A DNA stretch of 64,000 bases from Candidatus Zixiibacteriota bacterium (lineage in GTDB: Bacteria > RBG-13-66-14 > B26-G2 > WVWN01): NCBI GenBank assembly GCA_050117845.1, contig JASFLY010000003.1, positions 124,949 to 188,948 of the forward strand, given 5' to 3'. The translations under genes were made by a program, and so were the position numbers. Below the pieces are notes generated by a model that saw only the letters and a list, made by a program, of their open reading frames with translations, had not been told where the DNA came from and searched no databases. The number at the start of each line of letters is the position of its first letter. Positions within the stretch are counted from its first letter, which is position 1. Of the stretch, positions 15,762 through 17,489 are shown piece by piece.

Positions 15762-17489
15762 CTACGTTACGCGCCGATTCCGTATCCCTTCCAACCTCAT
15801 TAACAGTTTCGCCCACGAGAGATCGCACTCCGATATTTTTTGGTCGAGTATACAAAGGAACTCGTCCTTAACCTCACGGTTATTCTTCAGGAGGTCCAGT
15901 TGGTGGAGGCGGTCTATAAAGAGCGGCGAGCCGGCCGGCGTCTCGCTTATCTCGGCCAGCAACGCGCGGCCCGTTTTCCGCCGGGTCGTGGCCTGTATGA
16001 AGTACTCCGCCAGGCATTCGTTTCGCGCGCTCCTCGACAAACTCAGCTTCGGGATCGTCTCGTCTTCGTGTTCGGCAGGCCGTTGCCGCAAGAGCACGTG
16101 GCCCGCCCGCAGCAAAGCCGGGTTCTCCTCGTCCTCGATGGAACGGGCGATATCGTCCAGCTCGCTACTCGACAGATCGAAACTATTCAAACACATCATC
16201 GCCCCGAGCCGCCAATACCATTCAAGGTTTTTATCGGCGGCGTCGAAGCGGGCCAGTTCCTTTAACGCCGGAGAGTACTCCCGGCCGTACGCACCTAAAC
16301 GGTAGCAGTAGTAATTATGGTAAGGTATCCGTACGCTTTGCCGGCCCAGCGCTATCACAAGGGCGCCGGCGAAGAAGAAGCGGGCGGCGAAGCGCCGTAA
16401 ATAACGGAAGTTCTCCGAGAGCAACGAGGCCGTGGGGTTGTGCAAGAAGGTCGGTAAAACCAGCTCGAATACGGAATCGTCGCCCTCGCTTCCTAAAACG
16501 TCCAGGGCTTCGAAATAAGCCGAACCCCATTTCTCGAGGTCCCCGTCGAAGATGTCGGCCTCGATGAAGTCGCGGGCCGCGGCCACTCGGTCCCCAACGG
16601 CCCTGGAATCCGTCGGGAACTCGTATCCGGCCGTCAACGCCGAGGTCGCCAGCAATTCCGGCGGCCTCATGTCACCGCCGAATCCTTTCCGGCACAAACC
16701 CTCGTAATCCTCTATGACCTTTCGGGCCTCATCCTTGGTCTTGGTGAAGATAAGGGCTTTATCCCGGAAACGAACGTACTTGCGGCGGCTATCGTCGCCT
16801 CCGTTGGCCATGGCCCGGTCCAATTCCACGAGGGCGAAATTGGCCAGGAAGCCGGACGCGCCGTCGGCCGTCCACGAAAAACCGCCACCGTTGTTTCCCG
16901 GTTTATCCAAACCGCGGGCCCAGAAACGGTATACGTCGAATAGCGCGGACAACGATTCGGCCGCCCCGGGGACGCTCCCGCCGTTTCCGTTCGACAGCGA
17001 CAATATCCCGTCGCGGAGGCGGTCGACGTTCACTTTCTCGCGGAGGGGCGCCACGTCGATGGCCACGCAATAATCGTAGCGGCCTTTCGCCTCCTTGATG
17101 GACCGGAGATAACCGTTATCCCAACCGCTTGACCCGGCGTCCCAACGATAGGACTTCACGCCGTCGCCCAGTTTCGAATCCAGCCGGGGCCCCACCTTCA
17201 TTAAGAAAGCGTAAATTACCGCGAGATCGCAAATCGAAGCAACCGTCCGCGGCCTGAAACTTACGGGCGTCTCCGGCGTATTGACCTCGAGTAGAGGTTC
17301 GGGAGAGAAAAAACCCCCGTCAATATCCGATTTCAAGCGCCGGGCCAACCGGGCGGAATTCCATTTAACGTCGGCGTACCCGATCATATCGGCGATCGGG
17401 CTATATTCCGTATCGTTTAAGGCTCGGCCACACGCGGTCGAAACATCTTCGGCACTCGGCCATAAACGATTTACTACTTCTACTACCAT
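15762..17489 (-). CDS. reverse-transcriptase-like protein with degenerate catalytic motifs + helical C-terminal domain (paralog of the giant RT N-terminus)
   Basis: Aligns along its length to residues ~30-600 of the 25231-34656 product (YADVKWN/YEDVKHN; SYRW; RYDYCVAIDV/RYNYCAVGDV; FIDRLHQLDLLKNN/FLNRLHQLDLLKGN); RT motif B' PQG is ADG and motif C YVDD is FRDK. Confidence 0.7.
   Translation of the reverse strand: MVVEVVNRLWPSAEDVSTACGRALNDTEYSPIADMIGYADVKWNSARLARRLKSDIDGGFFSPEPLLEVNTPETPVSFRPRTVASICDLAVIYAFLMKVGPRLDSKLGDGVKSYRWDAGSSGWDNGYLRSIKEAKGRYDYCVAIDVAPLREKVNVDRLRDGILSLSNGNGGSVPGAAESLSALFDVYRFWARGLDKPGNNGGGFSWTADGASGFLANFALVELDRAMANGGDDSRRKYVRFRDKALIFTKTKDEARKVIEDYEGLCRKGFGGDMRPPELLATSALTAGYEFPTDSRAVGDRVAAARDFIEADIFDGDLEKWGSAYFEALDVLGSEGDDSVFELVLPTFLHNPTASLLSENFRYLRRFAARFFFAGALVIALGRQSVRIPYHNYYCYRLGAYGREYSPALKELARFDAADKNLEWYWRLGAMMCLNSFDLSSSELDDIARSIEDEENPALLRAGHVLLRQRPAEHEDETIPKLSLSRSARNECLAEYFIQATTRRKTGRALLAEISETPAGSPLFIDRLHQLDLLKNNREVKDEFLCILDQKISECDLSWAKLLMRLEGIRNRRVT

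Follow-up and report, generated by a model that had tools for sequence, protein, structure and literature searches.

A reverse transcriptase homologue with a degenerate active site in an apparent sigma-54-dependent operon with a secreted peptide and a gasdermin in Candidatus Zixiibacteriota

We describe a gene for a 575-residue (575-aa) protein in a stretch of 64,000 nucleotides (nt) from a Candidatus Zixiibacteriota bacterium (assembly GCA_050117845.1, contig JASFLY010000003.1, positions 124,949 to 188,948 of the forward strand). This whole stretch is called the window below, and coordinates are those of the window unless a locus is named. The gene (15762..17489, minus strand, ATG start) encodes a homologue of the Class 1 UG/Abi reverse transcriptases (RTs), of UG21-like type, which retains the fingers-palm fold and the C-terminal helical repeats of that class. 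Its active site is degenerate, so that the protein is best described as an RT-fold pseudoenzyme, and it lies in the middle of an apparent operon between genes for a small secreted peptide and a bacterial gasdermin.

An earlier note on this DNA had proposed that the product aligns to the N-terminal part of a giant RT protein encoded in the same window, and this is borne out. BLASTP of the 575-aa protein against the first 711 residues of the open reading frame (ORF) at 25168..34656 gives 308 bits (E 3e-100), with 210/608 identities (35%) and residues 12-569 covered. All of the shared blocks quoted in that note are found, with YADVKWN at 17378-17358 on the minus strand and the counterparts YEDVKHN, RYNYCAVGDV, EWYVRIAALYCLNTF and FLNRLHQLDLLKGN at 25321-26931 on the plus strand, within ORF 25168..34656. 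The similarity spans the fingers, the palm and the C-terminal helical half, and is not limited to helical or low-complexity stretches. Structure prediction likewise returns a confident fold with an RT fingers-palm portion (residues ~1-290) followed by a helical-repeat (alphaRep/HEAT-like) domain (residues ~298-575). The structural neighbours are DRT4, AbiA, AbiK and Abi-P2, and DRT6 and DRT9, which belong to other classes, rank high too. A C-terminal alpha-repeat/HEAT-like domain is the defining trait of the Class 1 UG/Abi RTs, UG21 included (PMC9226505). In profile searches, the top PADLOC match is RT_UG21 (5.8e-23), a profile with no curated cut-off that is matched at positions 4-252 of 503 only. 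Pfam returns no family at E <= 0.1, the RVT_1 gathering threshold not being reached, and the one NCBIfam match is a 19-bit group II RT fragment.

The catalytic motifs were compared with those of 12 canonical relatives, namely the window giant, a 3053-aa giant at locus L023, the standalone proteins P0016-18 and P0025-27 and the RT-PAS fusions P0021-24 (P labels denote proteins of relatives and L labels the loci examined). Fingers PK..RPG, motif A D..FFE, motif B LPQG and motif C YxRYVDD are invariant in 12/12 of these relatives; the 575-aa protein has PE..RPR, D..LRE, SWTA and YVRFRDK at the same sites. Alignment confirms the replacement of YVDD by FRDK in motif C, where Tyr has become Phe and the second Asp has become Lys. 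For motif B, the loss of PQG that was reported earlier stands, as PQG is conserved in no register, while the proposed ADG replacement is a two-residue register shift, MAFFT pairing LPQG with SWTA. The motif A Asp is retained (YCVAIDV, D145). Two members of the catalytic carboxylate triad, D145 and D243, are thus present and the second motif C Asp is lost, and of the determinants that bind the incoming deoxynucleoside triphosphate, the fingers Lys and the motif B PQG are both gone. At the level of sequence, catalytic degeneracy is therefore supported and is wider than first seen, extending over fingers, motif B and motif C, and it suggests that the protein no longer polymerises.

Relatives of the protein are rare. 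A search of 5.8 billion proteins returns only 15, and scans of GTDB and of metagenomes add about a dozen further loci. Full-length orthologues are found in at least 20 loci at 39-49% identity, against 35% for the giant, and their hosts are Zixibacteria, Coatesbacteria and related uncultured lineages. The family comprises a window clade (P0001-6, L016, L022), a Coatesbacteria clade (P0014, P0015, L010), a Zixibacteria clade (P0007-13, L011, L019, L020) and a very degenerate outlier (P0028). Each of the standalone relatives (24/24, the 575-aa protein included) lacks at least one canonical catalytic determinant, and the losses differ by clade. Members of the window clade have Glu for the fingers Lys, SAE, PAQ, SAD or WTA for PQG, and FFDD, [LF]RD, FQD or FRDK for YVDD; L022 has in addition an Asn in motif A. 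The Coatesbacteria clade has PPG for PQG and G[HNS]E at motif C. The Zixibacteria clade keeps PQG and [VA]DD, with the motif A Asp replaced by Glu or Gly and the fingers Arg mostly lost. The structural palm residues S212, F214, N217, D224, Y238 and R240 are invariant, and an alignment of 13 sequences has 40 invariant columns. This variation of catalytic sites within clades, beside invariant structural neighbours, points to relaxed constraint on catalysis.

The same pattern bears on whether the 575-aa protein could still be a polymerase, with a non-canonical site built on D145 and D243 and perhaps a changed choice of substrate or metal. In favour of such a polymerase, two carboxylates of the triad remain (all three in P0001, which has D plus FFDD), the structural residues of the palm do not vary, and purifying selection on the RT half is as strong as on the repeat half. 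The second motif C Asp has nevertheless become Lys, PQG and the fingers Lys are gone, and RVT_1 does not score. Moreover, the replacements (FRDK, [LF]RD, FQD, G[HNS]E and the Asn of L022) differ both between and within clades, unlike a new conserved site. We therefore consider residual polymerisation very unlikely.

Selection acts along the whole protein. The ratio of nonsynonymous to synonymous substitution rates (dN/dS) is 0.128, 0.143 and 0.176 in the window clade, 0.168 in the Coatesbacteria clade and 0.122 in the Zixibacteria clade, and the two halves of the protein, RT and repeat, give similar values. Conservation within the family is highest in the helical repeats, where the mean majority fraction is 0.70 against 0.59 for the palm. 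Purifying selection over the whole length indicates a pseudoenzyme rather than a pseudogene. Loss of the catalytic motifs, together with a gene caller's shorter start (541 aa), could have been taken as signs of a decaying pseudogene or a spurious ORF. That explanation is refuted by the intact 575-aa frame, by orthologues in at least 20 loci with dN/dS of 0.12-0.18, by the confident fold, and by the conserved operon position and promoter cassette described below. The shorter start was called on another contig of the same organism, at Met35, so that the stretch equivalent to window 17388-17489 (minus strand) is omitted; the longer ORF is the right one, because residues 10-34 are conserved in homologues. 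The start of the gene is indeed AT-rich, as had been noticed, with 33% GC in the first 30 nt against 58.5% gene-wide, the lowest of any 30-nt window in the gene. It is a strengthened form of an ordinary trend rather than a peculiarity, since other genes of the window also dip at their starts, to 40-53% GC.

In a neighbour-joining tree, the giant clusters with canonical RTs (80% of bootstraps) and the 575-aa protein with the standalone family that is linked to a sigma-54 activator. This grouping, and the lower identity of the giant (35%) than of orthologues from other genomes (45-49%), indicate that the paralogy between the two window proteins is ancient. A recent duplication was considered and rejected, as the giant falls with the canonical P0016-18 and the 575-aa protein with the activator-linked family.

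The sequence upstream of the RT-like gene places it under predicted sigma-54 control. A sigma-54 (-24/-12) promoter, TGGCACGGGAATTGC (17771..17785, minus strand), is an exact TGGCAC-N5-TTGC and the single exact match in 64 kb, where 0.04 would be expected. About 150 nt upstream of it lies a 16-bp palindrome, CCGCCAAAATTGGCGG (17929..17944), a putative enhancer (upstream activating sequence). The next gene upstream (17979..22958, minus strand) encodes a 1659-aa activator in which Pfam recognises a Ser/Thr kinase, AAA_16, MalT-like TPR, GAF, sigma-54 AAA+ and HTH_8 domains, in that order. This adjoining ORF had also been a candidate for the giant RT itself, which was rejected on these kinase and sigma-54 activator domains. 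At the sequence level the locus thus has the make-up of a sigma-54-dependent operon, with a -24/-12 promoter, an upstream palindrome and an adjoining gene with Sigma54_activat and HTH_8 domains.

This arrangement is conserved. Wherever upstream sequence is available (the window, L001, L005, L008, L009, L010, L011, L012, L014, L017, L019 and L020), the RT-like gene lies ~490 nt 3' of an orthologous ~1660-1735-aa kinase-STAND-GAF-sigma-54 activator gene on the same strand. In an alignment of the intergenic regions of nine activator/RT-like loci, the promoter stands at one position, and its TGGCA and TTGC do not vary (TGGCA[CT]-N5-TTGC). The palindrome, CCGCCAAnnTTGGCGG, is likewise sequence-invariant in the nine loci, across phyla, with essentially one per locus at that position. 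A second copy is often found ~80 nt further on. In the window this copy (CCGTTAATATTGGAGG, 17852..17867) is degenerate, with three mismatches, and alone is not above chance; better copies are present in L001, L012, L005, L014 and L011.

The palindrome and the T-run after it also look like a terminator in the terminator scan, and the element may end the activator gene. It is found, in addition, 5' of sigma-54 promoters with no activator gene directly before them, in L023 (two copies) and in L024, and because of these occurrences we read it as the enhancer site of the activator. The palindrome would then probably define the activator's binding site and hence its regulon, which differs among genomes and includes a giant RT in L023. 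At L024, the activator, palindrome, promoter and peptide ORF drive a canonical 1177-aa RT-PAS fusion. Compared with the standalone loci, L023 and L024 suggest that the cassette controls live RTs in some genomes and dead ones in others.

The first gene behind the promoter is a small ORF (17585..17737, minus strand), preceded by AAGGAGG, whose 50-aa product consists of MRAVRKLTLTSIIVVFLLSILAPSIAAA followed by SDVQPPIIPPPQSPPPDGEHDG. ORFs of this kind encode a Sec-type signal peptide with an AxA site and then a proline-rich mature peptide of 19-22 aa (here SDVQPPIIPPPQSPPPDGEHDG). Homologous ORFs of 46-50 aa, with the same AAGGAGG, occupy the same place in L001 (3154-3303), L005, L008 (9175-9315), L009 (2172-2300), L010 (~8584-8724), L011 (~9746-9895) and L024 (7594-7740), and in L014 a 48-aa gene is called there. 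The secreted proline-rich peptide may serve as a signal. Between the peptide ORF and the RT-like gene, a GC-rich hairpin (17529..17569, minus strand) has a folding energy of -40.6 kcal/mol (z -1.3) and no U-run after it. Hairpins at the same place in L001, L012, L011 and L008 have z scores of -3 to -6.4 and differ in sequence. Palindrome, promoter, AAGGAGG and small ORF are conserved in at least nine loci, and in the nine aligned intergenic regions they follow one another in this order, with the hairpin last. The hairpin is a possible attenuator or transcript-stability element. Its position after the peptide gene resembles that of the leaky terminators found behind peptide precursor genes. Searched with Rfam at gathering threshold, the region from 13 to 26 kb yields no non-coding RNA partner, and the intergenic region is made up of palindrome, promoter, small ORF and hairpin. 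A match to the Acido-Lenti-1 small RNA at 14585-14615 (plus strand), seen with Rfam at E <= 1, was rejected: it scores 22 bits against a threshold of 37 (E 0.18), overlaps the operon terminator and is most likely due to chance.

The third gene (14775..15680, minus strand) encodes a 301-aa bacterial gasdermin homologue. It has a GGAG ribosome-binding site and starts 81 nt past the stop codon of the RT-like gene, across a gap without a terminator. A strong bidirectional intrinsic terminator (14580..14609) then ends both this gene and a convergent GTPase gene. From this layout, the secreted peptide, the RT-like protein and the gasdermin form an apparent operon behind the sigma-54 promoter and the palindrome. 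The gasdermin assignment is supported by a PADLOC bGSDM match (2.8e-13) and by NCBIfam prok_gasdermin (1.4e-9, 38 bits, under the cut-off of 100). The single sequence matches PDB entry 7n51 at 8e-4, and a profile of the protein with three orthologues matches the solved bacterial gasdermins 7n51 and 8sl0 at 5e-10. The protein is also 100% identical to MGD8717871.1, from a Candidatus Zixiibacteriota metagenome-assembled genome (MAG), which bears a precomputed PF26164 match. Local Pfam gives no match for any of the four gasdermin orthologues, and a homologue search with the window gasdermin returned only itself. By tblastn, orthologues (~40% identity) follow the RT-like gene in L008, L009 and L010, the last a complete Coatesbacteria chromosome. 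All of the RT-like proteins linked to a gasdermin come from the two clades in which motif C is lost. A protease gene is missing from the operon and its flanks (activator and GTPase) in the window and from the genes called around the gasdermin in L008 and L009, and the short flank after it in L010 holds no ORF of at least 100 aa.

On balance, we lean towards a regulatory or scaffold role for the 575-aa protein in a sigma-54 circuit, without polymerisation and with gasdermin permeabilisation as the output in this genome. This role is favoured because the activator and the peptide are the only invariant partners of the RT-like gene. The protein would be made only when the activator fires, and would work by binding rather than by synthesis. 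Like Class 1 relatives of solved structure, it would probably form oligomers by way of the helical repeats; DRT3b, one such relative, is a hexamer (PMC13174585), and structure entries include a hexameric DRT6 and hexameric and tetrameric forms of DRT9. Its targets could then be the co-expressed products, the activator, or both, and the output of the module in this genome would include gasdermin-mediated permeabilisation of the membrane.

Several points weigh against this interpretation. First, it supposes that the sigma-54 promoter is active and that transcription continues past the hairpin to the RT-like gene, both of which are predicted from the sequence. Second, D145 in motif A and D243, the first motif C Asp, are kept, so that a non-canonical two-carboxylate site may exist. 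Third, the Zixibacteria clade, with its PQG and [VA]DD, may be polymerising still, and to call the whole family dead is an extrapolation. Fourth, the third gene is inconstant: neither the closest relatives (L001, L012, L013 and L022) nor the Zixibacteria clade has the gasdermin, and the RT-like protein therefore cannot be only a gasdermin adaptor. An obligate pair of RT-like protein and gasdermin was rejected on the same absences. In L013 and L022 the convergent GTPase gene is the next one after the RT-like gene, and in L001 and L012 a phosphate transporter gene lies between the two.

The loci of the Zixibacteria clade have a different set of genes at this place. In L017 (10471-20285, which extends L005), L011 (12352-15547), L025 and L029, an array of genes for apparently secreted proteins, a few of which are paralogues of one another, comes after the RT gene. 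Its products include an NHL beta-propeller, a protein with a weak match to fibronectin type III and a Peptidase_C25 (clan CD, caspase-like fold). An odd repeated N-terminal segment with the sequence MHFFLNIYPRLFKDGGRLG is common to several of them.

The main rival to a role within the sigma-54 circuit starts from the canonical paralogue in the window. The giant RT (25231..34656, plus strand) is a 3141-aa protein with a UG21-type RT, helical repeats, at least 12 PAS and 2-3 GAF domains. Its most likely start is the ATG at 25231, which has a GAGGAGG ribosome-binding site and makes the protein equal to P0020 in length; the full ORF is 25168..34656. Unlike the 575-aa protein, it is matched by Pfam RVT_1 (1e-14, 55 bits against a cut-off of 29.6), and PADLOC RT_UG21 matches it at 7.1e-72 over positions 2-482. 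No further output domain is detected in the giant, and its RT seems to be the output of what is otherwise a giant sensor. Fusions of an RT with PAS/GAF domains make up a separate family in which the motifs are canonical; at least five are known, of 1177-3141 aa. Besides the window giant, they include P0021-24 (1177-1951 aa) and the proteins encoded at L023 (9986-19147, 3053 aa) and L024 (8271-11804, 1177 aa). An HTH-WYL-WCX regulator, recognised by Pfam and PADLOC, is encoded upstream of the window giant (23837..24829, plus strand), and a WYL gene whose product is 66% identical lies directly 5' of the 3053-aa giant in L023 (7630-8676). Control of defence systems is common among WYL regulators, some of which bind single-stranded nucleic acid. 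In L023, the interval from the WYL gene to the giant holds the two palindrome copies, a sigma-54 promoter and a short signal-peptide-like ORF. The assembly of L023, SDBS01, also carries the standalone copy of L020, of the Zixibacteria clade, on another contig.

According to this rival, the dead RT would regulate the live RT-PAS/GAF paralogue or serve it as a non-catalytic subunit, the two forming a hetero-oligomer through the shared helical repeats. There is precedent, in that pseudoenzymes often regulate active paralogues and p51 supports p66 in HIV-1 RT. The two window genes lie within 7.7 kb of each other, on opposite strands and on either side of the activator gene. In SDBS01, the standalone copy (L020) coexists with a WYL-giant pair (L023) whose giant has two palindromes and a sigma-54 promoter and would thus share the regulation of the standalone gene. 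Both window proteins carry near-identical C-terminal blocks (RLHQLDLLK and EWYxR...CLN.F), and Class 1 relatives are oligomeric (PMC13174585). This adjacency is not conserved, however: unrelated genes lie upstream of the activator in L005, L008, L010, L011, L014 and L020. Among 100,044 GTDB species genomes, a pattern scan that would miss about half of the known giants found one copy each, and no second, in a complete Coatesbacteria chromosome and a Zixibacteria MAG. At L024, moreover, a live RT-PAS fusion fills the slot of the standalone protein, which suggests that the two are alternatives rather than partners, and the sigma-54/palindrome cassette, sought upstream of the window giant, is missing there. 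We regard a partnership with the giant as possible, if rather unlikely. Also unlikely is the proposal that joins the elements into one, in which a defence-type RT has become a non-polymerising signalling subunit, induced by the kinase/STAND/sigma-54 activator, that alone or with a live PAS/GAF-fused RT licenses a protease-less gasdermin or other effectors, so that the membrane is permeabilised in a regulated way.

The 575-aa protein and its setting resemble several known systems in part. Like the Class 1 UG/Abi RTs AbiK, Abi-P2, AbiA, DRT4/UG15, DRT3b/UG8 and UG21, it has a fingers-palm portion followed by C-terminal helical repeats. It differs from them in the loss of catalytic and dNTP-binding residues and in its conserved chromosomal site, its predicted sigma-54/activator control and its apparent operon, here with a secreted peptide and a gasdermin. 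Mutation of the RT motifs abolishes defence in every DRT tested, and UG21 has an inconclusive defence prediction (PMC9226505). The window also recalls DRT3 (UG3 and UG8), in which two RT homologues of different types, one of them Class 1, share a neighbourhood. Both DRT3 RTs are active, are encoded with a non-coding RNA and make complementary DNA strands (PMC13174585). In the window, by contrast, one copy is degenerate, the two genes are on opposite strands 7.7 kb apart, their pairing is not conserved and no non-coding RNA is found, so that the locus is not DRT3-like. RT folds are used structurally in the RT-like domain of Prp8 and in the p51 subunit of HIV-1 RT. These proteins are eukaryotic or viral, without an evolutionary or contextual link to the 575-aa protein.

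Bacterial gasdermins reportedly work in gasdermin-protease systems, described by Johnson et al. in 2022. The window gasdermin resembles those of such systems in a ~40-aa C-terminal extension past the pore-forming domain. It differs in that there is no protease gene nearby, that an RT-fold pseudoenzyme is encoded upstream, and that its expression is predicted to depend on sigma-54. The circuit as a whole is like those, such as PspF and PspA, in which a sigma-54 target operon encodes a regulator of its own activator. There, as here, the activator gene adjoins a sigma-54 operon with an upstream palindromic enhancer, and here a non-enzymatic product is invariably activator-linked. The Psp proteins are not related to those of the window, and that the RT-like protein feeds back on the activator is no more than a hypothesis.

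The chromosomal setting argues against a mobile defence island, a possibility that was rejected on the conserved chromosomal synteny of the window, L001 and L013. This synteny with L001 and L013 places the RT-like gene at a stable chromosomal position. The cluster downstream of the operon, at 8805-14501 (plus strand), encodes a Roadblock/LC7 protein (MglB-like), a 162-aa protein, two V4R proteins, a class V aminotransferase, a DUF4388/PatA_N protein and an MglA-like GTPase. Domains were checked in the window for the DUF4388 protein and the GTPase, and the rest are assigned by match of size and order to annotated L001 and L013. On the other side, an exopolysaccharide-type cluster (34720-56643, minus strand) converges on the giant RT gene. 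It encodes GT4 glycosyltransferases, an asparagine synthase, a Wzy-like ligase, two sulfatase-family proteins, a flippase and a Wzz/tyrosine-kinase-like protein. Convergent glycosyltransferase-like ORFs, identified by N-terminal sequence only, follow the giant in L023 and the fusion in L024 too. A convergent cluster behind the giant in the window, L023 and L024 suggests that the giant is also at a conserved chromosomal position. We also note, at 3873-6236 (plus strand), a gene for a 787-aa protein that consists of PAS (~4) and GAF domains alone and has no output domain, which resembles a detached piece of the giant's sensor array.

To our knowledge, every characterised UG/Abi or DRT RT works by DNA synthesis, and active-site mutants lose function. 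In the literature that we searched, we found no description of a bacterial UG/Abi pseudo-RT or of a catalytically degenerate UG/Abi RT clade and no paper with both 'Zixibacteria' and 'gasdermin', and among the matches listed there was no linkage of an RT with a gasdermin and no control of either by sigma-54 or an enhancer-binding protein. The context is unusual as well, in that a sigma-54 operon combines a secreted proline-rich peptide with a protease-less gasdermin, close to a live paralogue with ~15 PAS/GAF domains. An active site that has decayed in several independent ways under strong purifying selection suggests that the RT-plus-helical-repeat scaffold has a role independent of polymerisation. 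The module offers a system of few genes for the study of gasdermin control without a dedicated protease, of the roles of RT pseudoenzymes, and of how transcriptional induction is wired in uncultured phyla. If, as in the unlikely proposal above, a non-polymerising subunit of this kind did license a protease-less gasdermin, bacterial gasdermins would be controlled in a new manner, and a UG/Abi RT would for the first time have a function that needs no polymerisation.

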